Source of the DNA: Tubulanus polymorphus
Lineage: Eukaryota > Animalia > Nemertea
Length of the DNA stretch: 64,000 bases
Direction of reading: 5' to 3'
Assembly (NCBI RefSeq): GCF_964204645.1
Contig: NC_134029.1
Location: forward strand, 15,556,950 to 15,620,949
Shown: positions 1,465 to 62,548 of the stretch, in pieces
How positions within the stretch are numbered: position 1 is the first letter of the stretch
How the letters are laid out: every line of letters begins with the position of its first letter
Translations under genes and position numbers: made by a program
The notes under the pieces: model-generated
Databases searched by the model: none
Told to the model about the DNA's origin: nothing
Seen by the model: the letters and a program-made list of their open reading frames with translations, nothing else

Positions 1465-2794
1465 ATGGATGACAAGATAGAATGTAAAATTTGTGGTGAA
1501 CTTCAAAGAAAAAGTAATATGGCTCGACATATGAAAAAACATGATAAAAATTACAAACCCCCTAAAATAAACTGCCCAAATTGTAATAATTTATTCTCAT
1601 GAAATTATGTTAAAAACATTCAGAGAAGTGTAAAATTAATGATTCAACGGTTAATGTTGATAACAACCAAAGTAATAATAATTCTGTTGAAACTGAGCCA
1701 GAAATTATTTGGAAAAGACCTTTCTTATTCTATGATAAGAATAATATAAAAGATCATTTCTGTGAGCCTTTTCGAATAAAATATAGCCCTGAAAATATAG
1801 AAGATTGGGAGAATCATCAATTTCGTAAAGCACATACAGATAAAATTTCTTAAATAGAAATAATTTAAAATAGATTTGAAGCAGAATTTAATGAAAGAAA
1901 AAAATAATATATTAGAAAAAGTAAAATACGAGAAAACGTTACTAGATAATAAAGAAATACTTGAAAAGTTGGAAAAACAATAAGACGAATTAGTAAGAAA
2001 AACTTATTATTGCAAATATTGTAAATTGATTATTACAACAAGTAATTCAAATTTACATAATAGAACAATAAAACATAAAGAAAACGTAAGAAAATACCTA
2101 GAACTTAATGAAGATCTATTGCCAAGATATGATAGAAACAAAAGCCTACGATGTATTTATGTGTACTTAAGACAAGAAGATTCTGTGATATTTTGTAATG
2201 AATGTGGATGGCAAAGAAATTTATGGGGTGATGAAAAACTAGAGATATTCTTATAGAACCAAAATTAAAATATCTAGATGAAATTTTTAAGATATTTTCT
2301 ATGGAAGATCATACACCAGAAGATAAGCAATGGCTTGAAAAATGAAAATGATAGAAATTAAAAATGGTGAAATAACTAAGAAAGATATAATAAAACCAAT
2401 TATTCCATCAACATGTAACACAAAAGAAAAGAAAATGTATTTGTATTTATTATTTAACGATTATTATAAAAAACCTAAATTAACAAAAGAAGATATGGAA
2501 AATATAAAAGAATCATTCACAAACATATTAAAATATTATGTGGATAATAAAATAACAGATTCATTGAATTATGAATTCTGTTTGAATAAGTTTGTACATT
2601 TTTTAAACATCGATATTATAATTCCATTTGATGAATTAACGAACACAAAGAAACAAAGAGAGCTAGATGAAATGTGGAATAATATAGAACTTTATTTAAA
2701 TGAGAAAAATGAAATGGAAGAACCTAAACAATTCAATGAAAATGAAGAAGCCAATAGTGATTTCGAGTATGATGATATTGATTTTCTGTTTTAA
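1465..2794 (+). pseudogene. Frameshifted Polinton accessory ORF with C2H2-type zinc fingers
   Basis: TAAATG start; CKICGE..RKSNMARHMKKH and YCKYCK..HNRTIKH; acidic C-terminus in ORF 2342-2794. Confidence 0.55.
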
Positions 2795-4460
2795 TGGCCA
2801 TAAGGTGATGTTTTTATTCCATCACCTAAAATATATCTTTTATTGTCGAATGGATTTAAGCTAGCTTTTTCATCTTCATGAATGTACATCTCGTGATCTT
2901 CTGATCTTAAACAATTCATTTTATGTTTCATTACAATTGAGTTATTATAAACACTTTATATAATCTTGAAATTCTATATGTTTGTCAACCACATGCTTTT
3001 TTATTCCTTTTAATTTTTTACCCTCATGATCTTTTGTTCTATAACTATACATTTTACTTCTTATCACAACAAATTCAATCATTTCATCACCCCGCAGTTC
3101 ATCTTTTAATTTACCAGGAATTTTCTTATTATCATTGCTAAATAATTCATGATGTTTTGGATAATTGCTAAAATCAAAATGATGTTTTAATGTTTTTAAG
3201 TCTTTTGTTATGTCATTTGTCTTGATTTTAAGTATGTAGGCGTCCGTATTGACCGCTATTAATGGAATTCCACAGTTAAATGTTCCATCTCCAGTTGTTA
3301 AATCATAAACATAATCTGTTGGGTTATATATTTCAAATAAATCTCTAACTTCTTCAGTTATTTCTTTTTCTGTGTGCCTTAGAATAAAACAATTTGGTTT
3401 AGATTTAATCAATCCAATATTCATATTAAAACCTAATGAATTGCATAATATATTTAATCCTGATATACCAACTTTTCCTTTTTGTGCAAATGTTATTACT
3501 GGAGAACTCGGAAATTTTTTAGCACCATCTGCTGCGTAGAATCCAATGAAGAACCATTTTCTGAAATTATCTTTTGCATTTAATACATAATCTGGAACTA
3601 TCTTTTCTTTTGTTGAGGTATTACTTTTAACTATTGCATGAATAAAGAATTCATCATTATATTTTATAGCAAAATCTTTAGGATTATTCACAAGTATTCT
3701 ATGAACTGCTGATGATTCTAAATGTTTTATTTGGATAAACATCTTCACAGCATTTTTTAATTCTTTCTAATAATTTCAAATCTTGATTGCATACATACCA
3801 ACAATATTTATTGCCCCAAACATAATTATACACACCTGCTGAACCATCACCCATGACAAATCCTTTGATAAAATATTCTTTTTCTTCTAATGTTTCAGGT
3901 TCTATATTATGAATATTATCAATTATTTCATCAATTGACATATAATTCATTCTTTGGAAAATTATTTTATGTAATGATTCATCTCCAATTTTTATATCAG
4001 TTGGTTTTATTTCATCACCATTTTGTTTAATTAAACTATGATCTTCAGAAACATCAACGAATCCTAATTTAGTTCTAACTCTATAGATTTTCTTATTTGT
4101 TTTATGCCTAATAATATTCTTTAATTTTTTCCATCCATTTCTTGTCCAAACATCTATTAATCCATTTATTTGTATTAATTCTTTTTCACCATATGAAATA
4201 TAAAGTTCATTTTGTTTTGGAAATATTTCTGAAATTCTTCTAATTAATATTTGGTTATTGAATTTTAATAATATTGGGGTATCAGCTATTCCAGAATCAA
4301 AATATAATATTTCAATATGTTTTTCCCCAAAAAGTGGTTGTAAAACATTATAATAAAAATCATACATTAATAATTTTGATATTTCTAAAACAGTTGAACC
4401 AATGAATATAGGTTTATTAAATTTCATTGACGTTCTTTTTGAATTTTACTGCTGTTAAAT
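2791..4460 (-). pseudogene. pPolB C-terminal fragment interrupted by an intein
   Basis: FNKPIFIGSTVLEISKLLMYDFYY..ILYFD|intein|TDAYIL..FDFSNYP..KLKDE..RSKMYSY..LNPFDNKRYIL; co-linear with the intein-free pol at 25247-25930. Confidence 0.93.
3248..4295 (-). mobile_element. Intein with LAGLIDADG homing endonuclease at PolB motif C (Pol-c site); one frameshift near 3720
   Basis: Block A SGIADTPIL; block B VDVSEDHSL; LAGLIDADG motifs FIKGFVMGDGS and FFIGFYAADGA; block F YVYDLTT; block G LIAVN|T with +1 Thr. Confidence 0.93.
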
Positions 4461-5346: not shown

Positions 5347-6565
5347 TATTATGGGAAAAAATTACTTGTGGTGAGGAGTGGTGTGTCGTCCTCTCGTCCT
5401 CTGATCTGAACCCCTGATATTCCAATTACTGCTATCATGCACAAAGGTCCATGGGGTAGTTAGCTACGGCACATTTCCAATATGATCATTACAGCGCGCA
5501 TCTTTATTTTCACGTCACTGCTCTCCACATATCAAATAATTTGCGATATCTTGTAAACTTTGTTTGTGGGGTAGGCCCATGGATGTAACGATCGAAAATT
5601 AGTTTTTCGTTTATCCAATACGATCGCCACGGTGGACATCTTGAATTGCTTGGTTGTGCTCAACTCACATAAAATAACAAACGATTTCTTTTCAACTTGG
5701 TTTGTCAAATGGGGTAAGCTCATGGATAAAACCTATAAAAACACCGTTGTCGCTCTTCCACGGGCTACCACGGCAGACATCTTCAATTTCTTGTTAGCGC
5801 TACACACATCAAATAACATGCGATTTATCGATAACTTGATTTGTGTAAAGGGGTAGATCCAAGGATGAAACCTATCAAAAAATGAGCTTTCTCGCTCCTT
5901 TAATGTGGCCGGCACGGAGAACATTTTTTGAATATTGAATATCTTGAATATATTGTTAGCGCCCAACGCACATCAAGTCAATCATTTCTTTTGATTTTGG
6001 TTGAAGTGTTGGATAGGATAGCTCGATAGATGAAATCTATCAAAAGTAGTCTATTCACTCACCCAAGAAGGCCGTCAGAGCGGGCACCTTGAACATCTTG
6101 TGAGCGCTCTACACACATCAAATGATGTGCGATATCTTGGTATCTGTAATGGGGTTGGTACGACGTGAAATACATCTATTAGAAATAATAAGCGTTTTCA
6201 CTCGTCTACCATGCGTTAATGGCGGACATCTTGTTTGCCCTCTCCCTCATCCAAGGAAGAATTTTCAGAAGACATAACGGGGAAAACATGCTTGGTTTTA
6301 AACCACTTTTTAGGTAAAACGGTTTTAAGAAGATGGCACCGACAAGACCAGGTACGACCCGAACCGGTCGTATTCAGGTGGCATTGAAATCTTTGTGTTA
6401 TTTCATCATTGTTGTTCATATCAGACGTCGACAATCACTTAAGTAGGGTTAACATAGATCTATCACATGTTATTAACGTCTAAGTGATAGTGATTTGAGG
6501 CTAAAATGTCTCTAGGTTACGGTCTCCGCATTGATTGCTGCAATCAATTCTTTCTGAATTTTCAG

Positions 6566-13948: not shown

Positions 13949-14735
13949 ATAATCATTGTAAGCCCTTTTTTTAAATAAATATTATTTATACAATTTTCAA
14001 CCAATTTATTTTTATTTTTTCAACTAATATATGAATAAGTTTGAAAATAATAACGGTTATTTATTATTACTGAGGTTTCAATATAAATTTAAAAAAATAT
14101 ATAATTTAAGGTATTTTCAAATAATATGTATTAGATATGTATTAGATATGTATTAGATACCTTAATACTTAAAACCCCCTTTTTTTATTTACTATTATTT
14201 TATACAATTTTCAACCTCTATTACTTTTTGAGTGTTAGATAATTACTTTCTGAATCACTTTCATCATCACTCTCCAATTCATCATCAAACCCTAACAATT
14301 TATTCAAATGCTCTACCGTATCTTCATCATTAGTTGTTTTTATTGTTATGCTTATTCATCCAATCAAATTTATCATTATTTTCTACTTTATGTTTCATAG
14401 AATCTTTATTATCAATATGCTTATTAGGGTTTTCTGTTTCTTCACAGAAAACCCTATTGAAATTCGCGTGATTATTATTATTTTTTTTTCCCTTTTCCAC
14501 ATAGTTTTTGTTAAAAGTGTAAAGGCTTCCTTACCTTACCGCTGTCGCCGATACAATCCGTATGATGTCCTTCAGCTCACTTCAATCTCCAGATACTGCA
14601 TGGGAATTTTGATAAATCCACGTTATAAAGGCACTGTCGAGCCGTAAACATCAGAAATTTGGCTCCATTCAATTAGTAGCCATGTTGTGTTTTCTTACCG
14701 ATATTTCTCTCTTCTTTTCGAGGAAGAGCTATCGA

Positions 14736-25246: not shown

Positions 25247-28200
25247 TTAACACGTTAGAATTCTTTTCATTATCTCGTTCTCTTTGGTTTCTTCTCTTTT
25301 AAATTTTAGATATTCATCTAAATTGCAACCATAAGCAACTGTATGAATTCCATCATCTAAAATATATCTTTTATCATCAAATGGGTTTAGACTTATCTTT
25401 TCAATTTCTTCAATAAAAATTTCATGATCTTCAGATCTTAAACATCTCATCTTATGTTTTCTAACTTCTTCATTGAATATACAATTGATGTAATCTTTGA
25501 AATGAATATTCTTTTCTACTACACTTTTGGTTATTCCTTTTAACTTTTTAGGTTCATGTTCTTTAGTTTTATATGAATACATTTTAGATCTAATTCCTAT
25601 GAATTCTATCATTTCTTCACCACCTAATTCATCCTTAAACTTCCCTGGAACTTTTTTATTATCACTGCTAAACAATTCATGATCTTTAGGATAGTTGCTG
25701 AAATCAAAATGATGTTTTAATGTTTTTAAATAATCAGTTATGTTATTAGTTGTTATCTTTAATATGTAAGAATCTGTATCAAAATATAATATTTCTATAT
25801 GTTTTTCTCCAAAAAGTGGTTGTAATACATTATAATAGAATTCATACATTAGTAATTTTGATATTTCTAAAACTGAAGCACCAACATAGATTGGTTTATT
25901 AAATTTCATAGAAGATCTTCTCATTTTAACTGCAGCTAAATTTTCATCAGATATTCTGTTACCTAAAAACTTAGGATATGATTGTAAATGCCTTATCCTT
26001 TTGCCATTACTTACTAACTCAATATCATTTCTATTTCTAATATTTTCACAAGTCTTACCATAGAATGCATTGTTCATTAACTTGAAGAAATCTTTCTCAA
26101 AATCAGTTTTAGCTTCAGTTCTCCGTTTGGTGTTAAAATCTATATATTTTTCTAACCATTTAGATTGGCTAAATGAAATATATCTATGTACTTTTTTTAG
26201 GACCATTCCTTGTTTTAGATAAAACTTTAACATTCTATAATGTACTACATAATTATATTTATCTTCTTGAGTTACCATTAACTTTTCTGTATGAATATGA
26301 TTTTCGGGTTTAATTCCTTTTTGATAATTTGATAATTCTTCATGAGTAACAGTTTTATGTTCGGGGCAGTATGCTAGATTTCTAGATTTAAATTTAATAT
26401 GTTCAGGATATTCTAAATCTACAACAAAAAAGTAACCAGTATCTGAATCATCTGCATTCTTCATGAGTAACAGTTTTATGTTCGGGGCAGTATGCTAGAT
26501 TTCTAGATTTAAATTTAATATGTTCAGGATATTCTAAATCTACAACAAAAAAGTAACCAGTATCTGAATCATCTGCAATATCTAGGATTCTTTTCTTCCA
26601 ATCAAATTTATCATTATTTTCATGTTGTAAAACTTCACTTATTTCAAATACTCCATAGGGTTGTGGTTCCATCAATGCCCAACCGTATAAATCATTTGCA
26701 TCTATATATAATAACTTATATCCAGGGTTATCATTTACATTGAAATATCTATCACCTAATACACCTGAAACTCCTCCTCTTATAGATTTTTCAAATAATA
26801 GTAATTGATCTATATTTGTTAACAAATCCATTTTTATATCTGTAAATTTTAATCCACAATCCCATGTTAAACCTGGGCTAGAATAACAATGACACGGATC
26901 AATGTTAAAATATTTTAGGTTTACATCTCTAAACCTTTCAAATATATCAGTTAATAAAAATACATCTGATTTTAGATATAAATCTACTAATTGCCCATGA
27001 TTTTTCATTCCAAAATGATTCCAAATATTCAATGTTCTATTATATCCTTCATCTTTAACATATTCATTTTTTAATTCATCATAGAATTGTTCTTTTAATA
27101 ATTCAGTTATATTGAAATCATTATGTGATTTATAAAATGAATATGGAATTGCGCCTTTATATCTCATTAATTGAAAATCATCATTATTTGGGTAGTGTTG
27201 CTTTAATATTTTTAATTCATCATCAACTAATGATTTTGATAAGTTATCTAATGAACTATCAAAAAATCTATATGAATCTATAAATCTTAAACACCCAAAT
27301 TGGAATGATATATAATTCTCAGATGTTCTAGCTAACATTTTAAATCTATAAGTTGGTATTTTATCTTTTGATCTATTTGAATTTAATCTTTCTATTTCAT
27401 TATTAATTTCTTCTATTTTATGGCATAACTGTTTGATGAATAAATGTGCGTCATAGCCTGATAGATTATGAAATATAACTGGTATAAAATTGATTTTCTT
27501 AGCTTGTAAGTTACAATTCTCATGTGCAGCGCCTCTAAACTTTCCATTCAAATGATCATGGTCTCTTACTTTTTTATCTTTATAATTAAATATCTTTTCA
27601 CAATAATAACATTTATCTGCAAACTCAAATGCTTCTTTATCTTCTTCTGTCATCATAATTTCTATATTTTCATTTAACTTTTCATTAAATTTTATTTCAT
27701 ATTCAATTAATAAGTCACAAAAATGATTGATAACATTTTCATTACTATAATGATAATATTCACTTCTAATTAGTTCTGGATAATCAGATTTAATATATAA
27801 CCCAAAAGCTGCGGCTGATTGATGAATCTTTTTAATTGTATTTGTTATTGGCGGTTCTTCTGAAAAATCATTTTCATTAGAATTTAATTTCTTTCTTTTA
27901 TAATATATTTCTTTTCTATCTTGATCAGTTAATTTAACTTTAGTTCTTTTAGTTTAGTTCTTTATTTAATGATTCAAAATCTCCATATACGACAAATGGA
28001 ACTTTATTTTTGTAATCATATTTTTTTTATTCTAATATTTTATCTTTTTCATTTGGTAAAACTAATTTACAATAATCATGATTATCACATAATTGTTTAT
28101 GATTTAATAATGCACTTTCAGTTCTGAATTTATGTAAACATTTTCTACATAGATATATTTTATTATCAAAATCATTTTCTGATTTAAAAAATAAATCAAT

Positions 28201-29430: not shown

Positions 29431-29687
29431 CTAAATTTTTTTTAAAATTGATTTTAGAAGTTCAATGATTTAAATATTTAAATTATTTCAATCACACTTT
29501 ACTAACACTTTTAATGTTTAAAAATCTAACTCATACAAATATAAATATTGAAATAATGTTTAAAATATATCTATATATCTATTCTATAAGAGCTCGTACT
29601 CTCGTACTCTGGCTTGAAAGCCTACTTTTCTAATAACTTATATATGTTATTCATTTATATTTTATTCATGTATATGAATATTTTAAG

Positions 29688-30098
29688 AGTAATAGGGGTT
29701 TACTTGTTCTAGGTTAAAGGTTGAATGGTCGAGTTCATTAAAAAACAAATATTAAAAGTAATTTAAAACTATAATATATTTTCATAGTCGTGTGTATTTT
29801 AGTTAAATAATAGAATTATTAATTATTATTTGAATATATTTGATTATATGTATTTGTGTATTGTAAATAAATCAATTGGTCGCGGAGCGGAGCTTTAGCA
29901 AAGCGGAGCGACCAATTGATATAATACAATATGCTTTTTAAATTTAAATTATTAATATCTTAGAATAAATATTTAGTTATAATATGAAATACACACGGCT
30001 GTGAAAATATATTATAGTTTTAAATTACTTTTAATATTTGTTTTTTAATGAGCTCGACCGTTCGACCTTTGGCCTAGAACAACTAAACCCCTATTACT
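29688..30098 (+). repeat. 411-bp terminal palindrome of Polinton B
   Basis: agtaataggggttt...aaacccctattact arms with a central atcaattggtcgc/gcgaccaattgat stem. Confidence 0.88.
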
Positions 30099-37170: not shown

Positions 37171-37530
37171 AGTAATTGGGAATATCGGGGTTCAGATCAA
37201 AGGTCGAGAGGTCGAGCTCATAAAAAATGAAAATAAATTCTCGCACGCTCGAATTTATTTTCATTTTCTACTCACTCGCCCTCTCAACCTTTAATCTGAC
37301 CCCCCATATTCCCAATTACTCAATTACTCAATTACTCCTAAATTAAAATTTCATGTTTTAAAAGTGAGAGTAAAATGTTAGCATAATAATCTAAAAAATG
37401 AGATCAAATATAATCGAATGATAAAATATAAATTTTTAACATTAAAAATGTGCGTATAGTGTGAGTGAAATAATTCATATTTAAAACAGCGAATATTCAT
37501 ATTTTTATGAGTTAAATTCTTATTTTTAAC
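37171..37530 (+). mobile_element. Isolated Polinton end with a 150-bp terminal hairpin
   Basis: agtaattgggaatat...atattcccaattact (37171-37320), followed by sequence matching the reverse complement of 54370-54460. Confidence 0.8.
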
Positions 37531-44719: not shown

Positions 44720-44842
44720 ATAAAAACGAATGTCGTGATTTAGGAGATGTGTGTTTTAATGGTCGATGCAAAAATGTTGTTGGTAGTTATACTTGTCAAT
44801 GTCAACCTGGATTTAGTGTGGATGCTAACAAAAATTGTAAAG
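44720..44842 (+). CDS. Fibrillin-like host gene, cbEGF exon
   Basis: ttgtag|...|gtaagg, 123 nt; DKNECRDLGDVCFNGRCKNVVGSYTCQCQPGFSVDANKNCK. Confidence 0.94.
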
Positions 44843-46271
44843 GTAAGGTATTTAATCACTTTTTGGTTACACTTCAGGTTTGAGTGTAAAAAAGTAATCG
44901 CAATGTCGAAATCATATCAGCTTGAAGCGATCGGGCATTTTATTTTTTTCGTGATGGGTGTTATGATATATTGAAAACATTTGTGGCTCTATGCTGTTAC
45001 TTTGATTCGCAGGCTGCAGAACATTGTTATGCACATGTTTTGTTTTTTTCGACATAGAAATCTTAAAGGAGATTAGTACAAACGGAGATCTCGGCTACGA
45101 TGCTGCCTTAAAACTTTGTATTCAGTTCACCGAGAACTAGCTTGAAAGCTGTTTTGCCCTTTTCTCTGCCCTGTTTATGCTATCCTTACTCTTTCTCCAA
45201 CGCAATAGACGCAAATCGGATATTCGCACTGCACACCCCTTCTACACCTCTAACAAGGTGTAATTCTTGTTTCTCGTGAACCATTAATGATGAGCACAAT
45301 ATCCTCACTTTTTCACAAGTTACACACACACCGGATGGTTATCGAACGGTAACCAACTGAACGTTTCCATGACTATGTAAGAACAGAGAACATTTGGGTA
45401 GGGGACCAGTCGATGGGAGTGCTGACCCTTACGTATTGGTTTTTGGCCCGGCCCAAAGTGCTGGGGTGGTGGCCCCTACCACTCGTTCACGGTAGCTAGG
45501 CTGGTCATATCTTTCTTATCCTCGATTTGATGCAATTTCGTGTACCCGATGGCCAAAAGAGCGTACATGTAGGGGGATGGGGCTGGGGAAATTTCTTGAA
45601 AAATCTGAGCGTCCCAGGGGCAAGTGGTATTCCAACTTCGACATGAGCTGTGTGTCAGGATATTTGTTTTCCAGCAGCGTGTGTTTTGTGACAAACCTAA
45701 CTAATCATGGATGGTGGTACCCGAAGAAGGTGATAACGTGGCAATCGTGGATTCTACGTGTAGCTGGCCAGGATCCACCAGGTTCGCCATTCGACAGTTG
45801 GTTGTCCGCGTTCGTTTTCTTCTTCATTTCGATTAAATCTGAATGAAATTTTCTCAAATGAATCGTTTATGAAAACTGTACCGAATTCCGAGTAGAAGAA
45901 TGAAAGTATCGTATATTTGATGGGTGCTGTGATATAATATTTGGAATCTGGACTTGAAAATCCAGTCCAAAGTTCATTGAAAATGACTTTTCGACAACGG
46001 ACGACCTACAGCTCGTCACGCAATCTTATGCTGATTTTGTGGATTCCCCATTATTGGCAAGAAATCTGTCACTCATCTAAACATCGATCGTGAAATACAA
46101 TTCTTTTATTGTCGAAATACAATTCTTTTATTATAAGTAAAATAAATTCTCGCAAGCTCGAATTTATTTTTTCGACCCTTCAACCTTTGACTTGAAACAA
46201 CCTATTCCCTATTTTTCTTATAATATTCATATTTATGAATATGAATGACTTCTAAAATCAATTTTGATAAA

Positions 46272-46610
46272 AAATTTGATATTAAAATGGAAAGCGAATT
46301 CCTAAATAGAATAAAATATACTACAAATGTAAAATCTGTAGATTATAAATTTAAGAAGTTAACAGAATTAACATTACATAAGAAATATTTAATTACAAAT
46401 ATTTATATAGTTACTAACAAATATGGAGATAAATTAGTTATTCACTTAGAATATGAAGGATTAAAAGGAAATATTAAATTCAGAACATATTTACCAGATA
46501 GATTTCGTAGATTATCAAGTAAAGATTTAGAAGAATTATGTTCTGGGGATTTCTATTTCATATACAAAGGTAAGAATGAAAAATGGCACCATGAAATAGA
46601 TTTTGAATAA
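46272..46610 (+). CDS. Copy of the 117-aa Polinton protein
   Basis: Near-identical to 24864-25217. Confidence 0.6.
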   Translation, partial: KFDIKMESEFLNRIKYTTNVKSVDYKFKKLTELTLHKKYLITNIYIVTNKYGDKLVIHLEYEGLKGNIKFRTYLPDRFRRLSSKDLEELCSGDFYFIYKGKNEKWHHEIDFE

Positions 46611-48574
46611 TAAAAAATCAATTTTAATGAAAAATTTTATATTAAAACGGAAGCAAATAAGAAGTACTACTGTCCAACATGTAAAATCAATATAGATAAA
46701 TCTCAAAAAGCAAGACATAATAAAACTAAATCACACTTAGAAAATAAATTGAAATTAGAATATAAAGATGATATATTAAAAACTAAATTAGAAGAATTAA
46801 AGACTGAAAAAGAAATATATAGATGTGTTACATGTAATCAATCATTCGGTGATAAAAGATATCATAAAGAACATTTAAAATCTGAAAGTCATATTAGAAA
46901 TACTAATAATGAGTGAAATAATATAAAAAGTAACGAGTTAAAGAAAATATAAATTTTAAACATAAAAAGTGTGAGTAAAGTGTGAGAAGTAATTCATATC
47001 TTAACAGATTTCGAATAAAATCATAGTCAATTAATCAAATTTTTAAATATAAAAAGTAACGAGTAATTAACGAGTTGAAGAAAATATCATTAATTACACA
47101 TAAATGAATGAACAGATACTACAGTTCAAAGATATCGATGTAAATGAATTAGAAAAATATTTTACAATTAGAAATTTTATTCCTATTAAAGATTTGATTA
47201 AAACTGCACGTTTTCGTTTTCAAGCGAAAAATATTACTGAATTAATATTTAAAAATCATTATCTAATGGTGAGTTATCGAATGAAAAAGATAAAATCTTA
47301 TTCAATACACTAATTCCAAAATTCACTTGAAGAAATAGATCGACATTTAATAATTACAGATGAAATGCAATCACTTTAAAATAATGAAAATTCACATAAA
47401 ACATTATTTTTACACTTACGTTATTGCCCTTTCAGAGAATGCTATGTAATGTTTTTCAGAGTAGAAGAAAAAAGATATATCCCTGTCATTCCAAATGAAA
47501 AATCATTGAAAGATGTGGGAATTCAATGTGAATTAGATGATAATAAGTGTTATAAAGATGTTGGAATTCAATGTAACTTAGACAATAAAATTGATACATC
47601 GAAATATAATCCTAATGAAATCGTTTTATGTAATTGTGGAAAATATTATACTCGAAGAATTAGATCACACCATCTTAATTCAAAATATCATAACTCAAAA
47701 TAATAATTCAACTCTAAATATTCAAAATAAGATATTTCAAATTACTTTTTTTCTTAAATAAATGTATGATTTCAACATTCCAACCGGAAGTAGTGATTTG
47801 AAACATTATTTAGTTGCTGGAGGTTTAATATTAGCTGCACTTTACTTTTACTATGAGAATATTAGTAAAGATCTAATGAATGAAAACATAAATTGAGTAA
47901 AAAGTTTAAGAAGTTAAATGGGTATAATCATAGAAAAAATAACAATAAAAAAGTTAATGATTTAAAAGAATTAGAGGATTAAAACAGCATCTTTTAATTT
48001 GATTTATTTTATATGTTTTAACTATAAAAAAGAGTGAGAGTAAGGTATTAGAAATATTACATCTAATATATAAAAATCGACAGAATATTAAATCAATTAT
48101 TATGCTTACAGGATTAGTTTCTTTTTCATTTTATAGTATAAAACAGTAGTAATTGGGAAAGTGGGCTTTCAGATCAGAGTACGAGAGTACGAGACACCAC
48201 TCATCACCACAAGTATTTTTTTTTCTTTTAAATGGGGGAGAATGAACAACATACAGAAAACAATAATGTCAATAAAAATCAATATTATTTTCCATATTGT
48301 AAAAAATACATCGATAAATCCCCAAAATCACGTCATGAAAAAACGTAGATAGACAAAAGTAGTGTGTTTAGAAAAATTAATTTTTTTTTTGCTTTTTTCC
48401 TAAAATAAACAAACTTTTTAATATAAAAGAGGCTAATTAAATGAAAAAATTGTTCAATGTTAAAAGTGTGAGTAAAATAATTTAGATTTTCAATGTTAAA
48501 AGTGTGAGTAAAGTGTGAGTAAAATAATTTAGATTTTCAATGTTAAAAGTGTGAGTAATAATTTTGCTATATAA

Positions 48575-49291
48575 ATGAAAGAAGAAATGGAATTTAAAAT
48601 TGAAACAAAAGAATTTAATGAATTATTTTCACTATTTAACATTAAAAATTGTATCTCAGCAAAAAATTTAGTGTATGGAAGACAATATAAAATTGATGAT
48701 ATTACTGTAATTAATCAGATATTATTAAATGAAACATATTTAATTACTGAACTAATAGATACTCTAGATAATGGTGCCAAAATCCTAAAATATTTAATAC
48801 AGTTTTAAATTATAAAGGTAATTTAGATGAAAACATAATAAATATTCTTAAATTTCCTTTTAATGAAAGAGAAAGTGATATAATACTTTCAAAAAGTAAT
48901 GATAGGATAGACTTAAGAATTGAAACGACAATTATATTATTGTAATTTTGATAATAAACAAATTATCTATAATGAAAATTCATCAAATATGGGAATTCAA
49001 TGTGATTTAGAAAACAATAATTCTTTTAAAGATATTGCAATTCAATGTGATTTAGAAAACAATAATTCTTTTAAAGATATTGCAATTCAGTGTGATTTAG
49101 AAAATAGTAAATCTTTTAAAGATATTGCAATTCAATGTGATTTAGAAAATGAATTCAAAAGATTTAATCCTAATGAAAAAATTGTTATTGCGGAGGTAAA
49201 TATTCAAAATCACATAAATCAAAGCATTATCAAACAATTAAACATAAAAACTGGTGTAAAGAGTAACAATTCTACATTAAAAATAAATTAA
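48575..49291 (+). pseudogene. Accessory ORF with KDIAIQCD repeats, frameshifted; mirror copy at about 52950-53656 (-)
   Basis: ORFs 48575-48808 and 48920-49291; mirror ORF 53131-53559; paralogue at 47104-47703. Confidence 0.6.
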
Positions 49292-49339
49292 ATAGTCAAA
49301 TAATTATTGAATTAAGTTAAATGATTTAAATATCTAATA

Positions 49340-49585
49340 GACTGTTAAAATAATAAATTGTCAGACTGTTAAATGTTAAATTGTTTGACTGTTAAAATAA
49401 TAAATTGTTTGACTGTTGAAATGTTAAATTGTTAGACTGTTGAAGTGATAAATTGTTTGACAGTTGAAATGTTAAATTGTTTGACTGTTAAAATGTTTAA
49501 TTGTTCGACTGTTAAAATGATAAATTGTTTGACTGTTGAAATGCTAAATTGTCAGACTGTTGAAATGTTAAATTGTTTAACTGTA
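49340..49585. repeat. 21-22-bp minisatellite in the left arm of E
   Basis: gactgttgaaatgttaaattgttt-type units. Confidence 0.85.
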
Positions 49586-49698
49586 AATTTAATTGTTATT
49601 TGATTTAATCATTTAAGAGTTTAATATTTTAAAAATGATTATAAAATATTTAATTAAAAACTAGCAAATATTTATTAATTTTCTAGTTTCTTAAATAA

Positions 49699-49896
49699 AT
49701 GGATGGTTTCATCCCAACTGGGAAAAGTGATTTAAAACATTATCTTGTAGCAGGAGGATTAATATTTGCGGCATTATACTTTTACTATGAAAATATTTCA
49801 AAAGATTTGATGAATGAAAATATAAAATTGAGTAAGAAATTGAAAAAATTAAATGGAAATAAAAATAATCATAAAAAAGTTATTGAATCAGATTAG
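49699..49896 (+). CDS. 65-aa single-TM accessory protein; mirror copy 51938-52135 (-)
   Basis: TAAATG start; HYLVAGGLIFAALYFYY; third copy at 47762. Confidence 0.55.
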   Translation: MDGFIPTGKSDLKHYLVAGGLIFAALYFYYENISKDLMNENIKLSKKLKKLNGNKNNHKKVIESD

Positions 49897-49916
49897 TGAA
49901 TTAATTAAATGAATAA

Positions 49917-50219
49917 ATGAGTGGAAATATATTAAACTTATTACATCTAATATATAAAAATCAACAGAATATTAAATCAATTATTGTGCTTACAGGTTTA
50001 TTTTCATTCTCAGTTTATACTATAAAACAGTTGTTAGAATTTTATGATTCTTGTAAAATTAGATACGCTGAATTGAAAGATAACATAAATTATATTTCAG
50101 ATCGAATAAATAATAGTAAGTGTTGTGAAGTATGTAATACAAGATATAAAAATTTAAAGAGTTTAAAAACTCATAAATATATTCATGAATTAGATGAGAA
50201 ATTTCATAATTCAAATTGA
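49917..50219 (+). CDS. 100-aa TM plus C2H2 zinc-finger accessory protein; mirror copy 51615-51917 (-)
   Basis: CEVCNTRYKNLKSLKTHKYIH; TAAATG start. Confidence 0.55.
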   Translation: MSGNILNLLHLIYKNQQNIKSIIVLTGLFSFSVYTIKQLLEFYDSCKIRYAELKDNINYISDRINNSKCCEVCNTRYKNLKSLKTHKYIHELDEKFHNSN

Positions 50220-52249
50220 GAATAAGACTGTTAAATTGGTTGAAAATATAAAAATAGATAATATTATAACTATTTTTATTTTTAGATTAATAATTTATAT
50301 TTATAATTATTATAAAACTAATTTATATATATATTTACTAGACGTACGAGTAAGAATGTAAGAAAGTAAGATTTCTTGGATTCTTGGATTCTTACTCGTA
50401 CGTCTAGTACATAGATATATAAATAGTTTTATCATATATGTTTCTGTTTCAATATTTATTTATCTCACGGATTTATTATAAATATTTGGACAAGTATAAA
50501 TCATATTTAATTATGTATTAACATTTATAATTAATAAAAGAGGATTACAATGAACCCGCTAGATTGTTTAACTGTTTAAGTATTAAATTGTGTACATTGT
50601 ATATTCATAAATTAAATGAAATAAATCACGACTAAGACTGTTAAATTAGTTGAACTGTATGAAATATTGTATGAAATATTAGTTAATTAAAAAAGGGGGT
50701 TGAGGTATCAATGTATTAAATACATATTAAATACGTATTAATGTATAAAATGCATATTATGTTTTATTTCTGAAAATAAAGTAACAGAAGTAATTTATGT
50801 TTTAATTTATTCAAATATGATATTGTAAATTCTTTACATTTGACTAGGATAATACAAGAGTGATATTAGTTAGTTGGCTTATTCAATAAGAGAAACAATG
50901 AAATAATACAAGAGTGATACTAACAGTTAAAGTTATTGAATTTCTTGTTAAATCTATTTGAATTCTAGTCAATCCTTGTTAACCAATAGCGTGAATAGAA
51001 ATCAAAAAGATTTAAATAAAAAAACAATAAGTTAAATAAGTTAGTATTAGATAAAGTAACTTATTGTTTTTTTATTTAAATCTTTTTGATTTCTATTCAC
51101 GCTATTGGTTAACAAGAATTGACTAGAATTCAAATAGATTTAACAAGAAATTCAATAACTTTAACTGTTAGTATCACTCTTGTATTATTTCATTGTTTCT
51201 CTTATTGAATTCGTGATTTATTTCATTTAGTTTATGAATATACAATGTACACAATTTAATACTTAAACAGTTAAACAATCTAGCGGGTTCATTGTAATCC
51301 TCTTTTATTAATGATAAATGTAAATACATAATTGAATATGATTTATACTTGTCCAAATATTTATAATAAATCCGTGAGATAAATAAATATTGAAACAGAA
51401 ATATATGTGATAAAACTATTTATATATCTATGTACTCGACGTACGAGTAAGAATCCAAGAAATCTTACTTTCTTACTTTCTTACTCGTACGTCTAGTAAA
51501 TATATATATAAATTAGTTTTATAATAATTATAAATATAAATTATTAATCTAAAAATAAAAATAGTTATAATATTATCTATTTTTATATTTTCAACCAATT
51601 TAACAGTCTTATTCTCAATTTGAATTATGAAATTTCTCATCTAATTCATGAATATATTTATGAGTTTTTAAACTCTTTAAATTTTTATATCTTTTATTAC
51701 ATACTTCACAACACTTAATATTATTTATTCGATCTGAAATATAATTTATGTTATCTTTCAATTCAGCGTATCTAATTTTACAAGAATCATAAAATTCTAA
51801 CAACTGTTTTATAGTATAAACTGAAAATGAAAATAAACCTGTAAGCATAATAATTGATTTAATATTCTGTTGATTTTTATATATTAGATGTAATAAGTTT
51901 AATATATTTTCACTCATTTATTTATTTAATTAATTCACTAATCTGATTCAATAACTTTTTTATGATTATTTTTATTTCCATTTAATTTTTTCAATTTCTT
52001 ACTCAATTTTATATTTTCATTCATCAAATCTTTTGAAATATTTTCATAGTAAAAGTATAATGCCGCCAATATTAATCCTCCTGCTACAAGATAATGTTTT
52101 ACATCACTTTTCCCAGTTGGGATGAAACAATCCATTTATTTAAGAAAGAAATTAGAAAATTAATAAATATTTGCTAGTTCATAATTAAATATTTTATAAT
52201 CATTTTTAAAATATTAAACTTTTAAATGATTAAATCAAATAACAATTAA

Positions 52250-52882
52250 ATTTACAGTTAAACAATTTAACATTTCAACAGTCTAACAATTTAACATTTC
52301 AACAGTCAAACAATTTATCATTTTAACAGTCGAACAATTAAACATTTTAACAGTCAAACAATTTAACATTTCAACTGTCAAACAATTTATCACTTCAACA
52401 GTCGAACAATTAAACATTTTAACAGTCAAACAATTTAACATTTCAACTGTCAAACAATTTATCACTTCAACAGTCTAACAATATAACATTTCAACTGTCA
52501 AACAATTTATCATTTTAACAGTCGAACAATTAAACATTTTAACAGTCAAACAATTTAACATTTCAACTATCAAACAATTTAACACTTCAACAGTCTAACA
52601 ATTTAACATTTCAACAGTCAAACAATTTTTCATTTTAACAGTCGAACAATTGAACATTTTAACAGTCAAACAATTTAACATTTCAACAGTCAAACAATTT
52701 ATCATTTTAACAGTCGAACAATTAAACATTTTAACAGTCAGTCAATTTAACATTTCAACTGTCAAACAATTTATCACTTCAACAGTCTAACAATTTAACA
52801 TTTCAAAAGTCAAACAATTTATTATTTTAACAGTCGAACAATTTAACATTTAGCAGTCTGACAATTTATCATTTTAACAGTC
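52250..52882. repeat. Expanded 21-22-bp minisatellite in the right arm of E
   Basis: aacagtcaaacaatttaacatttc-type units with ~86-bp higher-order periodicity. Confidence 0.9.
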
Positions 52883-54463
52883 TATTAGATATTTAAATCA
52901 TTTAACTTAATTCAATAATTATTTGACTATTTAATTTATTTTTTATGTAGAATTGTTACTCTTTACACCAGTTTTTATGTTTAATTGTTTGATAATGCTT
53001 TGATTTACGTGATTTTGAATATTTACCTCCGCAATAACAATGTATTTTTTCATTAGGATTAAATCTTTTGAATTCATTTTCTAAATCAAATTGAATTGCA
53101 ATATCTTCAAAAGATTTACTATTTTCTAAATCACACTGAATTGCAATATCTTTTAAAAGAATTATTGTTTTCTAAATCACATTGAATTGCAATATCTTTA
53201 GAAGAATTGTTGTTTTCTAAATCACATTGAATTCCAATATTTGATGAATTTTCATTATAGATAATTTGTTTATTATCAAAATTACAATAATATAATTGTC
53301 GTTTTTCAACTCTTAAGTCTATCCTATCATTACTTTTTGAAAGTATTATATCACTTTCTCTTTCATTAAAAGGAAATTTAAGAATATTTATTATGTTTTC
53401 ATCTAAATTACCTTTATAATTTAAAACTGTATTAAATATTTTAGGATTTTTGGCACCATTATCTAGAGTATCTATTAGTTCAGTAATTAAATATGTTTCA
53501 TTTAATAATATCTGATTAATTACAGTAATATTATCAATTTTATATTGTCTTCCATACACTAAATTTTTTGCTGAGATACAATTTTTAATGTTAAATAGTG
53601 AAAATAATTCATCAAAATTCTTTTATTTCAATTTTAAATTCCATTTCTTCTTTCATTTATATAGCAAAATTATTACTCACACTTTTAACATTGAAAATCT
53701 AAATTATTTTACTCACACTTTACTCACACTTTTAACATTGAAAATCTAAATTATTTTACTCACACTTTACTCACACTTTTAACATTGAACAATTTTTTCA
53801 TTTTATTAGCGCTTTTATATTAAAAAGTTTATTTTTGGAAAAAAGCAAAGAAAAAATTAATTTTTCTTAACACACTACTTTTGTCTATCTACGTTTTTTC
53901 ATGACGTGATTTTTGGGATTTATCGATGTATTTTTTACAATATGGACAATAATATTGATTTTTATTGACATAATTGTTTTCTGTATGTTGTTCATTATCC
54001 CCCATTTATAAGGAAAAAAAATTACTTGTGGTGATGAGTGGTGTCTCGTACTCTCGTACTCTGATCTGAAAGCCCACTCTCCCAATTACTAACAGTTGTT
54101 AGAATTCTATGATCATTGCAAAATTAGATACGCTGAATTAAAAGATAACATAAAATTATCTATCAGATAGAATTAATAATATTTAGTGTTGTGCAATATG
54201 TAATAAGAAGTATAAAAATGAAAAATCATTAAGAAATCATAATTATATTCATTAACTCAATGAAAAATTATATGAATCAAAATAAGATATATGATATTTC
54301 AATTAATACCCCTTGTGTCTTTATTATCTTTAGTAGGTTTAATTACTAGTTACTTTTTATATTGAAAATTGATTTTTTATTATCCGAAATCTATATTTTA
54401 TCTTATTTTCTAGATTATTATGCTAACATTTTACTCACACTTTTAAAACATGAATATTTTAAG

Positions 54464-54613
54464 AGTAAATAGGAATAAGTTGTTTCAGGTTAAAGGTTGA
54501 AGGGGCGAGTGAGTAAAAAATAAAAATGAATTCGAGCGTGCGAGAATTTATTTTTATTTTTTATGAGCTTGGCCCCTCGACCTTTGGCCTGAAACAACTT
54601 ATTCCTATTTACT
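54464..54613 (+). repeat. 150-bp terminal palindrome of Polinton D
   Basis: agtaaataggaataagttgtttcagg...cctgaaacaacttattcctatttact. Confidence 0.88.
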
Positions 54614-54774
54614 ATTGTTCTATTAGACACAGAGGACTCTCATAGCGATGGAAGATGTCTCTGTGGGATTGATTTGATTTGGGTTGTTTCAACAATTATT
54701 ATTAGTTCTTTATCAACTTACTTGTTTTTACTTCTATCAAAATGTTTTGTAATCGATGGTCATACTTATTCCAG

Positions 54775-54900
54775 ATATCAATGAATGTAGGGAAAATGCG
54801 TCTTTGTGTCTGAATGGAAAATGCGAAAATACACCTGGGACATATCTATGCATTTGTAATGCTGGATATGAAGTAACAGCAAATCGAGATACTTGCGTAG
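54775..54900 (+). CDS. Fibrillin-like host gene, cbEGF exon
   Basis: ttccag|...|gtaagg, 126 nt; DINECRENASLCLNGKCENTPGTYLCICNAGYEVTANRDTCV. Confidence 0.94.
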
Positions 54901-57529: not shown

Positions 57530-58635
57530 TTACCTGCCATTGGGTTGATTTGAATCAAATTATCGCCACCAGGGGCCAACATAAAAAAATGACGTTAACA
57601 GCCTAAATGCCGCAATTGGTGACCGTTTCATGGTGACCGTTTCATTTCAAACTTGGTGCACAAGTAGGATGTCATCTGGCCGAGAACCATATTTGAAATT
57701 AGGTTGATTCGATTCAAATTATGGCAACCTGAGGACCGGCATGAAAAACAACGTTAACAGCCTAGAGGCCGCAATCATTGACCGATTCATTTCAAACTTC
57801 GTACACAAGTAGGGGAATACTTGGGCCAGAACCTTACTTATAATTGGGTTGATTTCATTCAAATTATTGCCACCAGGGGGCCGACATGAAAAACGATGTT
57901 AACAGCCTAGAGGCCGCAATTGTTGACTGATTGTTTTCAGACTTGGTACACAAGTAGAGTATCACTTGGGCCGGAACCCTATTTAGAATTGAGTCAATTC
58001 GAATAAATGGCCACCTGGGGTCTGAAATGAAAACTCGAGGCCACGATTGTTGGCCGATTTATCTCAAACTTGGTACACAAGTCGGCCAAAGGCCTATTTA
58101 AAATTGATTCAAATTATGGCCACCAGGGGCCGACCTGAGGAACAACGTTAACAGCCTAGAGGCCGCAATCGTTGACCGATTCAAATTATGGCTATCAGGG
58201 GAAAACAGCGCACTTGGTTAAGCCTACACAAGTAGAGTATCACTTGGGCCGGAACCCTATTTAGAATTGAGTCAATTCGAATAAATGGCCACCTGGGGTC
58301 TGAAATGAAAACTCGAGGCCACGATTGTTGGTCGATTTATCTCAAACTTGGTACACAAGTCGGCCAAAGGCCTATTTAAAATTGATTCAAATTATGGCCA
58401 CCAGGGGCCGACCTGAGGAACAACGTTAACAGCCTAGAGGCCGCAATCGTTGACCGATTCAAATTATGGCTATCAGGGGAAAACAGCGCACTTGGTTAAG
58501 CCTAGAGGCTGCAACTGTCGATCAATTTCTTTCACTTACTTTGTGCACATGTTCTCTAATATTATTTACCACAAACCCTGTAACTCACGTGGCGGTGAAT
58601 TTCAGGCCGGGGGCATTCGAGGCTTGCCTCATTCT
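57530..58635 (+). repeat. HINE-like core tandem array (~150-bp units) with a 278-bp near-perfect duplication
   Basis: aacagcctagaggccgcaat / aaacttggtacacaagt units; duplication starts at 57947 and 58225. Confidence 0.75.
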
Positions 58636-60078
58636 TTAGCAAATCATTACGATCGTCAGATCTTTACTAGAATATGACCAGGATATGACCAATTAGCGGA
58701 CGATTTCAGGCACAGACCAATAGATCTTATCACCAACATATCCAGGACAGACATCGCCACCAATGAGACTCTATTCAAGTTTGAAACCTTGATTATTTCG
58801 GTTCGAACAAAGTGGCTGATTGTTTTGGAAATTTCATAAGATGTGAAAATCTAGAACTTAACATTTTGTTGTCGTACTAGGAGAAAAGACGATAAGCTTC
58901 TTGAAAGGCAGAGGCAAAACTTGTCTGGGCTTGCTAGTCTGGGAAGGTTATCATAAGGCCAAAACTAATAGATTAGTGTTCCTTATAAAGTAATCATATT
59001 AAATCCATTGTGTTTAAACATAGGCAGATCTATTAGCTCTATCACTAGTCCGAGATTTTGTTCGTTCACATTGAGAAGATAATGAAAGATACATCATCTT
59101 TCTTGTATTTATGGTACAGATGACACGGGGGATGCCTAATTGGATATGTGCAAATTTCACACTCAAGTCAACTGTATATTTCCTTGAAGTCAATAGTACC
59201 ATAGTTATCATGTGTATGAGTAATTGTAATATGGCGTTTTCAGACCAGAGGACTAGAGGACGACACACCACTCATCACCACAAGTAGTTTTCCCCATAAT
59301 AAATGGGAGATAGAAAAGCATTCTTAGCAACAATAAATAACAGAATAAAACCAACAAAAAACAATTTGAAATAAAAAAGTTAGTCGGTGTTACAAAAGAA
59401 ATTGAACACAAAATAATGAAATTAGAAAAGATAAAAACTAAATATAGAAGAAAGTAACAGCAAATTTAAGCTACTGTAATGTTAGTACAACGCGAGAATT
59501 TAAAGTATTTTTACCTAATAAATGGGTTGCATTGAGTACAGAGGAATTAAAAGATTTAGAAGGATTTAAAATAATTTACCATGGGAAAAATGAAGACGGG
59601 CATCATGATTTTGAAGTTTTTGATTAAAAAAATAAATTGATAATAAAATTAATTAAATATTAAGAATAAAAAAATAATATCAAGAATCCGAAATGACTTA
59701 TCTGGACAATTTAATTGCTCCGCATAGACTGACAAAAGTAGTGAGATATTCAATTAATTAAAATAAAATCATTTTTTTGCTTTTTTTCTAAAATATTATT
59801 CCATTTTTTTTTTGTGAATTTTGGAATATCAGAAGTATTTTCATTTTTAATAGCAGTAGTTTCAGAATTATTGATAACATAAATTTTATTTGATTTCTTA
59901 TACCAACTACACCCAAACAAAATGAATACAATTACAAATCCAGTTGTAAAATACAGATATTTATCAAATATTCTATTATTAGAAGGAGGAGAAATAACAA
60001 TATTTTCACCATTTTTATTGACATTTTTATTACTTATTTTTTCTTTTACAGCTTTTTTATATTCCTGTGATTTAATTC

Positions 60079-61624: not shown

Positions 61625-62548
61625 TTATGTATTTTTAATTTTACTCGATAATATCCATTCATTGTATTTATCTGGCCATCCAACCCATTTTACTAAAGAA
61701 TATTTTTTTCTATTAACAGTTTTTGTTTTTAATACTTTTTCAATTTTATATTCTTGTTCTAGATTTTCAGTAGTTAAACTTAATTCTTCTTCATAAAAGT
61801 ACCCATCTACTTCTTTACCATTTAAATCTTCTAATTTATAGACATATGGTTTTGTTGTTATTACCTTTTTTATTTTGTATATATCTCTAGTAAAATTACG
61901 ATCATATCCTTTGTCAAATATCTTTTCATACTTAGAAATTCTAACATTTTGACCAACTTTAAATTTAGGTTCACCAAAATCATCTATAAGAAATAATATA
62001 AATTATTCCATATAAAATTTTGTGATTATCTAAGAGTTCATGAACAAGTGAATGATCGAATTCTTTTCCATCATCAAATTGTATTTTTTCTGGTTTTAGT
62101 TTATCATCCGAAAGAAATTTTCTTAAAACATTTGATGTTTGTACAGCATCTTTTTTGTAAAGTGGGAAGCTCCATACATAACCACTAAAAATATCAATTA
62201 TATTTAATATCCACCAATAATCATTATTATCTTTCTCAACATTTTTCTTATCAATTAAATCTCCTTGCCACTGTTGATCTACATAACTTACCATAGTTTT
62301 ACGAGTTTTATATTTTCTAACAATTTTTTTATGCGTTGTATATGTTGGTTGTTCTAACATAAATTCATTTTATCTTTATATTTAACTAAACTTTGTGGGA
62401 TTATCTTATCTAATTTATCTAATTTTACTTGACGCCATATGTTTTTTACAGAAGAATAAGCAACCGAACTCTCAGGATTATAATATAAATTTCTTAGATA
62501 TTGTTCTCTAGTATTTCGAGTTTTTTTTACCCCCCCCCCCCCCCCCAT
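61625..62548 (-). pseudogene. Retroviral-like (rve) integrase with C-terminal chromodomain; frameshifted and internally deleted
   Basis: YYNPESSVAYSS; QWQGDLID..IIDIFS..IQFDDGKEF; KFKVGQNVRISK..FDKGY..YFYEEEL; LVKWVGWPDKYNEW. Confidence 0.92.

Follow-up and report, generated by a model that had tools for sequence, protein, structure and literature searches.

The window, i.e., the whole 64,000-nucleotide stretch of Tubulanus polymorphus DNA that was analysed, includes two host exons encoding calcium-binding EGF-like repeats (44720..44842 and 54775..54900, forward strand), the upstream one fibrillin-like, a gene name inferred from the motif. Between them, on the forward strand, lies an older mini-Polinton (46139..54616, approximately 2.5 kb without the insertion it has received), comprising a truncated left end, a 121-aa ORF, a polymerase 5′ stub, accessory ORFs and a right end that terminates in a 156-nt hairpin (54461-54616). 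Nested in this outer element, and thus in the host intron, is a near-whole-length palindrome of 5,943 bp (48148..54090).

Approximately 41% of the remaining window, by rough borders, is Polinton-like and 2.5% is similar to the palindrome's arm; a single insertion event gives no support to homing of the element to its own sequence. Among the coding remains of Polinton relics in the window are B-family polymerase motifs accompanied by an endonuclease VII domain, an rve integrase bearing a chromodomain, and an A32 ATPase. Two relics, at 5430(-) and 59219(+), have about 500 nt of their end, including an ORF, in common and different gene modules beyond. One neighbouring polymerase ORF matches three viral loci at 37-44% identity, to which the arm peptides show no match; since this ORF has no match in Pfam, NCBIfam, PHROGs or PDB, its name rests on translation motifs and the adjacent endonuclease VII domain. 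A 383-aa ORF was placed near double-jelly-roll capsid clusters by Atlas (0.97; recognition 1896, weak), which returned no name for the accessory ORF of the outer element. Local hairpins are found at Polinton ends in the window (37171-37320, 54461-54616, 29688-30098).

Architecture, insertion and gene content of the palindrome

The element has AGT...ACT ends and is enclosed by a 6-bp target-site duplication, AACAGT, at 48142..48147 and 54091..54096 (both on the forward strand). Aligned to the element itself, the left flank falls on 49668-50031 and the right flank, from 54097 onwards, on 50032-50221, with no gap between the two; because the flanks abut in this way on the element's internal homologue, the duplication is genuine. 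Integration in palindromic form, as proposed by the first-pass annotation from the termini and the duplication, is upheld. The Polinton terminal motif (48148..48240, forward strand) has approximately 80% similarity both to the two termini found at 5430(-) and 59219(+) and to a further copy at 29638(-) that resembles a terminus. The element's ends can be aligned with the termini of relics within the window that bear polymerase, integrase and ATPase, the closest being approximately 80-85% alike, and no helper with exactly the same end was found within the window.

Self-BLAST resolves the palindrome into three inverted matches: 48147-49587 with 54091-52634, 49340-50631 with 52499-51211, and 50881-51210 with itself. 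The left arm, L (48148..50631, forward strand; delimited by self-BLAST and global alignment), runs from the Polinton terminus into ORF remnants, and the right arm (51211..54090, reverse strand) mirrors it and ends in ACT. A 24-nt minisatellite counts 10 units in the left arm (49340..49584) and 26 in the right (52254-52882), and an imperfect internal palindrome of approximately 130 nt (50308..50436) has its mirror copy at 51410-51526. The centre (50881..51210) consists of 154-nt inverted arms, 50881-51034 and 51057-51210, around a 22-nt spacer (51035-51056) that is also present in contigs of public sequencing runs. These relations agree with the mirror pairs and the spacer of about 22 nt first described.

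Global alignment of the left arm against the right gave 23 mismatches in 1185 columns from terminus to minisatellite, 21 in 1031 from minisatellite to 50631, and 1 in 154 in the centre hairpin. About 2,640 columns pair per arm, with one kind of end, instead of the pairing length of approximately 2.9 kb originally suggested. Arm divergence is 2.0% plus indels: 44 substitutions, 12 small indels, 384 nt of minisatellite, and U, a stretch of 249 nt (50632..50880, forward strand) that by global alignment is partnerless in the present copy. The statement that only about 250 bp is unpaired therefore describes U correctly and omits a second unpaired part, the 384-nt length difference of the minisatellite. 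Outer and inner arm divergence are equal (Fisher p 0.88), and 12 of the 44 differences fall within the first 300 nt (post hoc p 0.013), a pattern not predicted by a strict model in which the arms were identical at insertion and decayed uniformly. A younger age of the centre hairpin was considered and rejected, the difference between 1/154 and 44/2216 not being significant (p 0.36). U resembles another Polinton-like relic at 14130-14213 (81% over 85 nt); its origin as a separate transposon insertion was also rejected, given borders without a duplication, the match to that relic, and the U-hairpin junction seen in the runs.

At a threshold of E<0.01 the element is matched by none of the 10 core ORFs of the window's Polinton relics, and no stop-to-stop frame in it is longer than 163 aa, in keeping with the absence of pol, integrase and capsid genes noted earlier. 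The polymerase is represented by a zinc-finger 5′ stub of approximately 35 aa, one in each arm (left copy 48232..48345, forward strand), resembling the start of the polymerase ORF in relics at 46662-46727 and 4674-4592 and, for the right-arm copy, also at 29423-29364. Further inward on the same strand lie a frameshifted accessory ORF with 45-nt repeats (DxxIQC; 48575..49291), homologous to the outer element's 47482-47691 and otherwise with neither family nor homologue found; a 65-aa ORF with a hydrophobic stretch (49699..49896), which shows 83% similarity to 47777-47914 of the outer element; and a 100-aa ORF with a weak C2H2-type zinc finger, below the Pfam cut-off, that is open in both arms (49917..50219). 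The outer element's homologue of this last ORF is the insertion site of the palindrome. Neither the 100-aa ORF nor the 163-aa ORF yielded a relative: for the former, none of 28 candidate stretches in viral contigs was confirmed and none of 3 candidates in the protein collection passed; for the latter, none of 27 candidates passed. Each arm is collinear with the surrounding two-ended 2.5-kb mini-Polinton across four ORF remnants, which marks the arm as a deleted mini-element and not a plain end. The description of the element as one Polinton end copied head-to-head thus stands as regards its Polinton origin, while the arm is laid out like a whole deleted mini-Polinton.

Family evidence in public sequencing runs

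Contigs from four public runs, representing at most two samples of one study, cover 49610-51056. Those holding the centre and spacer are about 40-50 times as deep as one-off contigs, whose depth was taken from diverged contigs; in run X1, three near-exact records reach 1559-2061x against 34-61x for five diverged one-off records (8 of 784 X1 records listed). Summed depth, which is not equivalent to copy number, lies at 2300-3400 in 11 of 30 bins, which are distributed across L, U and hairpin arm, and exceeds 3400 in the other 19, reaching 23,264; arm, U and hairpin are about level. The border between U and the hairpin is crossed unbroken by records in three runs, one of them with 0 differences over 108 nt, and none of the 10 joints listed skips U. 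In three X1 contigs the hairpin arm is followed by the spacer in reverse complement, and the spacer itself is the sole loose end at the hairpin tip among the 24 of 226 loose-end rows listed. No run record spans the whole queried stretch, and the central 45 nt had no exact match in metagenome contigs or in viral contigs.

Among the 40 of 155 variant rows listed, run variants carry the right-arm letter at 10 of the 21 inner-arm differences (nine at ≥95% of X1 depth, one at 48%), the outcome expected of two arms that started from a single sequence and decayed independently. The same pattern is also compatible with identical long TIRs.

Taken together, the high depth of centre and spacer, the level depths of arm, U and hairpin and the lack of a U-less joint among those listed point to a family that, judging from these contigs, likely has tens of palindromic copies. 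One whole palindrome copy was seen, at the present locus, with neither a second target site nor a non-palindromic parent in the run, metagenome and viral contigs searched, and the high-depth records concern 49610-51056. The idea of a single defective event consequently gives way to that of a likely multicopy family, and the high-depth records point to the proposed mobilisation in trans. The unpaired 249 nt is likely not the fold-back loop; as U joins the hairpin in the run contigs, the asymmetry likely reflects later deletion of one U in the present copy.

Origin of the palindrome and competing explanations

The presence of Polinton ends and a duplication with core genes absent identifies a non-autonomous Polinton derivative, and self-complementarity over nearly the whole length with one type of end is characteristic of a snap-back product. 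We consider it probable that the 5.9-kb palindrome belongs to a non-autonomous, helper-mobilised family, tens of copies strong, that arose by fold-back of a deleted mini-Polinton, snap-back being the best reading of its origin. An internal deletion would have left a mini-element with a terminus, polymerase 5′ stub and accessory ORFs, the architecture now seen in the arms. During strand-displacement copying, a strand may have reversed direction at the site of the present 22-nt spacer and used itself as template, so that one end gave rise to two identical ones. Once displaced, a strand of this kind of molecule would form a duplex hairpin of approximately 3 kb that re-forms the terminal origin and could be copied by a helper polymerase, keeping the arms alike. 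A Polinton integrase would then have inserted the palindrome into the older, related mini-Polinton in the host intron, where the duplication and the nesting are observed. The differences now present between the arms would have followed insertion, with approximately 1% drift per arm, a minisatellite change of 16 units and the likely loss of one U.

A rather unlikely alternative, differing from this explanation in origin only, is that an autonomous Polinton with gene-bearing TIRs of approximately 3 kb lost its internal 10-20 kb, leaving two TIRs and 22 nt, and subsequently spread in trans. Gene-bearing TIRs do exist: butterfly polintons are reported to have TIRs of about 2 kb with hexon and adenain genes, resembling the present element in having kilobase inverted ends with ORFs in two copies (10.1101/2025.02.07.637071), and the end shared by relics 5430(-) and 59219(+), with its ORF and differing modules inward, is in line with such an arrangement. 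The butterfly elements, however, are described as full-length, with core genes between their TIRs (10.1101/2025.02.07.637071), where here 22 nt separate the arms. The deletion would have to end no more than 22 nt from each inner TIR border, the arm is built like a whole deleted mini-element, and the loose end at the hairpin tip, in the rows listed, is the spacer only. Vertebrate Maverick TIRs are given as 46-1447 bp (PMC8097293), compared with approximately 2.6 kb paired per arm here.

Fold-back of a mini-Polinton also accounts for the run data better than an ordinary non-palindromic mini-Polinton family whose inverted repeat (U and hairpin) is confined to a central or subterminal position and of which the locus palindrome would be a rare single rearrangement, integrated once. 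That only one whole palindrome was seen, that Polintons of the same genome bear the local end hairpins listed above, and that whole-element structure is beyond the reach of short contigs would all fit such a family; however, the floor depths of L, U and hairpin arm are similar in X1, whereas a local hairpin predicts about twice the depth of L for the hairpin, and the junction of U with the hairpin arm is branchless in the run contigs, which makes it improbable. Foldback transposons (FB, Galileo, Tc6 and MITE-like non-autonomous elements) typically have long inverted arms that are modular and contain tandem repeats, and duplications of the FB/Galileo/Mutator type measure approximately 7-11 bp. 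Such arms are present here, and the element is likewise non-autonomous, nearly all inverted repeat and likely moved in trans, but foldback transposons differ in their ends, duplication lengths, cut-and-paste transposases and lack of Polinton-derived ORFs. A foldback DNA transposon of another superfamily with captured Polinton pieces is accordingly very improbable: the duplication is 6 bp, the ends can be aligned with the termini of relics bearing polymerase and integrase and are of Polinton type, not of a cut-and-paste superfamily, and all identified arm parts are Polinton-like. Two head-to-head insertions, a post-insertion rearrangement at the locus or an assembly fold-back artefact, of which insertions and artefact had been raised as possible refutations, are close to excluded. 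Nothing was found in their favour beyond the general fold-back risk in long reads (PMC12870357). Against them, a single duplication encloses both arms, no terminus lies at the centre, and hairpin and spacer recur in independent run contigs; the arms also differ by the substitutions, indels, minisatellite and U described above, which argues against an artefact.

Relation to known systems and wider meaning

Snap-back defective genomes are known from AAV and RNA viruses, and the protein-primed linear plasmids pGKL1 of yeast and pSLA2 of Streptomyces have palindromic or hairpin derivatives. In the plasmid derivatives, as proposed here, a single telomere suffices, through fold-back, to restore a palindromic replicon with two ends, although these are extrachromosomal and the present element is integrated. 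AAV snapback subgenomes are described as self-complementary molecules from one parental end, in symmetric and asymmetric forms, for which dsRNA and a regulatory effect on the helper have been proposed (PMC8235507). Whereas AAV is an ssDNA parvovirus with transient particles (PMC8235507), the palindrome is heritable, probably integrase-inserted, likely multicopy and derived from a protein-primed dsDNA replicon. With Polintons/Mavericks it shares the 6-bp duplication, the inverted AGT...ACT ends, and termini and ORF remnants common to core-gene-bearing relics of the window; it differs in size (5,943 bp against 12.7-24.6 kb, i.e., 12,723-24,620 bp), in a single AGT in place of the vertebrate (AGT)2 motif (both from PMC8097293), and in lacking the core genes for protein-primed polymerase, integrase, ATPase, protease and capsid. 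No description of palindromic Polinton elements was found in the literature searched.

To our knowledge, the mechanism of Polinton copying is undemonstrated in animals. In the proposed replication model, an excised strand with annealed ends is copied by the protein-primed polymerase (cited in 10.64898/2026.07.28.741278). Multicopy whole-element palindromes are the parasite that this model predicts, so that comparison of arms within and between copies tests it from genome data alone. More tentatively, such elements may be recurrent, undescribed animal Polinton satellites: palindromic self-priming-origin hairpins replicated by a helper polymerase and inserted by a helper integrase into Polinton relics, outcopying their helpers as heritable defective-interfering genomes and, from introns, supplying hairpin RNA against the family. 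If this satellite reading is true, these palindromes would be fossil replication intermediates that put the single-strand panhandle model of Polinton replication to the test. A multicopy palindrome family would also extend snap-back defective genomes to heritable germline elements. An intronic inverted repeat of 2.6 kb could, in addition, readily give rise to hairpin RNA and make its locus unstable, and elements of this kind, being without marker genes, would be missed by gene-based Polinton surveys.

Structure of the palindrome and its integration

The palindromic Polinton-like insertion at 48148..54090 is composed, by self-comparison of the window, of two long inverted matches, the left arm (48148..50631) and the right arm (51211..54090), and a self-inverted centre (50881-51210) with a 22-nt spacer at 51035-51056. 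Base-by-base alignment gave 23 mismatches in 1185 columns for the outer arm, from the end to a minisatellite, 21 in 1031 for the inner arm, from the minisatellite to 50631, and a single mismatch in 154 for the centre hairpin (50881-51034 versus 51057-51210). Combined, the long arms differ at 44 of 2216 columns, or 2.0% (95% interval 1.4-2.7%), and 12 small indels separate them as well. Two longer stretches have no partner: U (50632-50880, 249 nt), and 384 nt belonging to a minisatellite of 24-nt units, of which the left arm has 10 and the right arm 26. Both analyses bear out the 5.9-kb palindrome of the first-pass annotation, whose 2.9 kb of pairing was somewhat too long, as pairing extends over about 2,640 nt per arm.

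The hexamer AACAGT stands on either side of the element, which itself reads AGT...ACT. The left flank (47732-48147) aligns with element-internal sequence at 49668-50031 (71%) and the right flank, from 54097, with that at 50032-50221 (80%), and after one AACAGT is set aside both flanks abut on the internal homologue; no terminal motif was found at the centre. The AACAGT repeat is a true target-site duplication, so the palindrome entered as a whole in one integration event, in agreement with the earlier proposal of integration in palindromic form with a 6-bp duplication.

The surrounding host gene has at least six exons with AG/GT borders encoding calcium-binding EGF-like repeats, and is putatively fibrillin-like, a name taken from the motif; exons of other domain types would be missed by the scan. 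Between two such calcium-binding EGF-like exons, at 44720-44842 and 54775-54900, the palindrome is nested in an older mini-Polinton at 46139-54616 (about 2.5 kb without the insertion). The left part of this outer element matches the large relic at 17.9-30.1 kb at 89-90%, in the relic's end, polymerase 5' part and a small ORF; the right end of the outer element bears the terminal hairpin of the family. The landing site (48142-54096 within 46139-54616) is the outer element's copy of an ORF that the palindrome carries too, and arm-like sequence makes up only 2.5% of the window outside the palindrome; a single insertion is too few to distinguish targeting from chance.

Polinton relics and the composition of an arm

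Polinton-like sequence occupies some 41% of the window outside the palindrome (with rough borders), as relics near 1.2-5.4, 12.5-14.4, 17.9-30.1, 37.2-37.5, 46.1-54.6 and 59.2-64 kb in introns of the gene with EGF-like exons. Coding sequence in other relics of the window specifies an endonuclease VII domain, an A32-type ATPase and, at 61628-62369, an rve integrase that carries a chromodomain. The integrase chromodomain might steer insertions into silenced relics. A 415-aa ORF carries KxxxNxxYG and DTDS, which we take to be B-family polymerase motifs, and had no match in the profile and structure libraries searched (Pfam, NCBIfam, PHROGs, PDB); a 383-aa ORF weakly resembles double-jelly-roll capsid clusters. 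The ends of relics with Polinton genes align with that of the palindrome at about 80-85% over 46-93 nt, so that, judged by this alignment, its ends are Polinton ends. None of 10 relic core ORFs matches the palindrome, upholding the earlier statement that it lacks core genes.

Several features of the relics deserve description in their own right. A terminus-like motif at 29638-29593 (-), 85% alike to the palindrome's end, is located within the large Polinton, immediately behind the terminal hairpin. Two relics, at 5430-4952 (-) and 59219-59720 (+), share an end of about 500 nt holding an ORF alike to the 121-aa ORF of the outer mini-Polinton; one leads into a polymerase and the other into an ATPase/integrase/capsid module. 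Gene-bearing TIRs thus exist in this genome. At three Polinton ends (37171-37320, 54461-54616 and 29688-30098) an inverted copy of the terminal motif is found 150-410 nt further in, and the end thereby folds on itself as a hairpin; the terminal 8-mer at 37320 is tandemly repeated, and one hairpin-bearing end in the window leads into a polymerase ORF. Terminal palindromes are described in protist virophages and PLVs, mostly those without pPolB (10.64898/2026.07.28.741278). The three hairpins suggest that, in this family, template switching or turning back often occurs near the ends. At 4460-2800 (-), in a frameshifted region, an apparent intein interrupts a Polinton polymerase fragment at the DTD motif; the intein N-terminus model TIGR01445 reaches 28 bits there (cut-off 24.5), and two visible motifs are presumably LAGLIDADG-like. 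An intein in an animal Polinton polymerase was not found among the papers listed, by title or abstract opening. Tandem duplications at 26335-26577 (122 nt at 100%, within the polymerase ORF) and 57947-58504 (280 nt at 99.6%) may be recent or assembly-made.

Peptide comparison shows the arm to be collinear with the outer mini-Polinton and in the same orientation, from a polymerase 5' zinc-finger stub through a repeat-bearing accessory ORF and a 65-aa hydrophobic ORF to a 100-aa zinc-finger ORF; these ORFs had no relatives in the viral contigs and protein collection searched. In the outer element, a second end follows the last ORF after about 170 nt; the arm instead extends across a 130-nt palindrome, then U, then the centre. 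U matches another Polinton-like relic at 14130-14213. Thus, the arm is best read from its sequence as a deleted mini-Polinton without its second end. The first-pass annotation had described it as one Polinton end; the Polinton origin stands, and the plain end gives way to this collinearity.

The family in public sequencing runs

The region is partly present in four runs of one study, from at most two samples, and family-level structure rests on their short contigs, compared over 49610-51056. Among the matches listed for run X1 (8 of 784 records), near-exact contigs reach depths of 1559, 1779 and 2061x and diverged one-off contigs 34-61x. If the one-offs are single copies, the near-exact contigs would represent some 40-50 arm copies, i.e., tens of elements, an order of magnitude only, contig depth not being a copy number. 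Eleven of 30 bins, spread over the left arm, U and the hairpin arm, have summed depths of 2300-3400; the other 19 are deeper, up to 23,264, where contigs overlap or relatives add.

The centre and its spacer are present at high depth. In runs X1, X2 and X3, contigs extend across the border of U and the hairpin without a break, none of the 10 joints listed skips U, and in three X1 contigs the hairpin arm continues into the spacer in reverse complement. Read most simply, this means that family members share the spacer and carry U on each arm, one U having been lost from the copy in the window. Contigs drop rare variants, and these data say nothing on the presence of the window copy in the samples; metagenome and viral contigs held no exact match to the centre.

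Among the best 40 of 155 variant rows, the right-arm letter occurs at 10 of the 21 inner-arm differences, at 9 of them with at least 95% of X1 depth; one further difference lies in a misaligned patch and 10 are absent from these rows, as expected if the left arm has the family letter there. Thus, the two arms seem to have diverged to a similar extent from a single sequence, although 12 of the 44 arm differences are concentrated in the first 300 nt (post hoc p 0.013).

A proposed fold-back origin and its implications

In the replication model cited in 10.64898/2026.07.28.741278, Polinton ends anneal, a protein-primed polymerase copies the element and integration makes a new duplication; a displaced strand re-forms the origin only by pairing of its two ends. 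A molecule with one end lost could regain an end if its strand turned back and copied itself. From the resulting palindrome, a displaced strand would fold up as a complete duplex, which the polymerase of a helper would copy and the helper's integrase would insert. The main rival is a parent with gene-bearing TIRs of about 3 kb that lost its middle. Gene-bearing TIRs of about 2 kb are described in butterfly polintons (10.1101/2025.02.07.637071), but both breakpoints of such a deletion would need to fall within 22 nt of the TIR borders. We infer a fold-back origin and replication in trans. The structural observation of the first-pass annotation is confirmed, and its interpretation as a snap-back defective Polinton partly supported and refined.

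In its workings the element resembles a non-autonomous Polinton, and in its architecture a snap-back genome; it is not an autonomous Polinton, lacking the core genes and falling short of the size. Protein-primed linear plasmids have palindromic derivatives. Self-complementary "snapback" genomes from one end are given as a major class of AAV subgenomes (PMC8235507), and vertebrate Polinton/Maverick TIRs as 46-1447 bp (PMC8097293). The titles and abstract openings listed, from outside subscription papers and Repbase, describe no whole-element palindromic Polinton, and prior mention is possible. Copies of the palindrome might interfere with their helper or give rise to silencing by hairpin RNA. 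Foldback-like non-autonomous elements and snap-back genomes are already familiar ideas; a multicopy whole-element palindrome is of note to specialists and makes the Polinton replication model testable from genomes.
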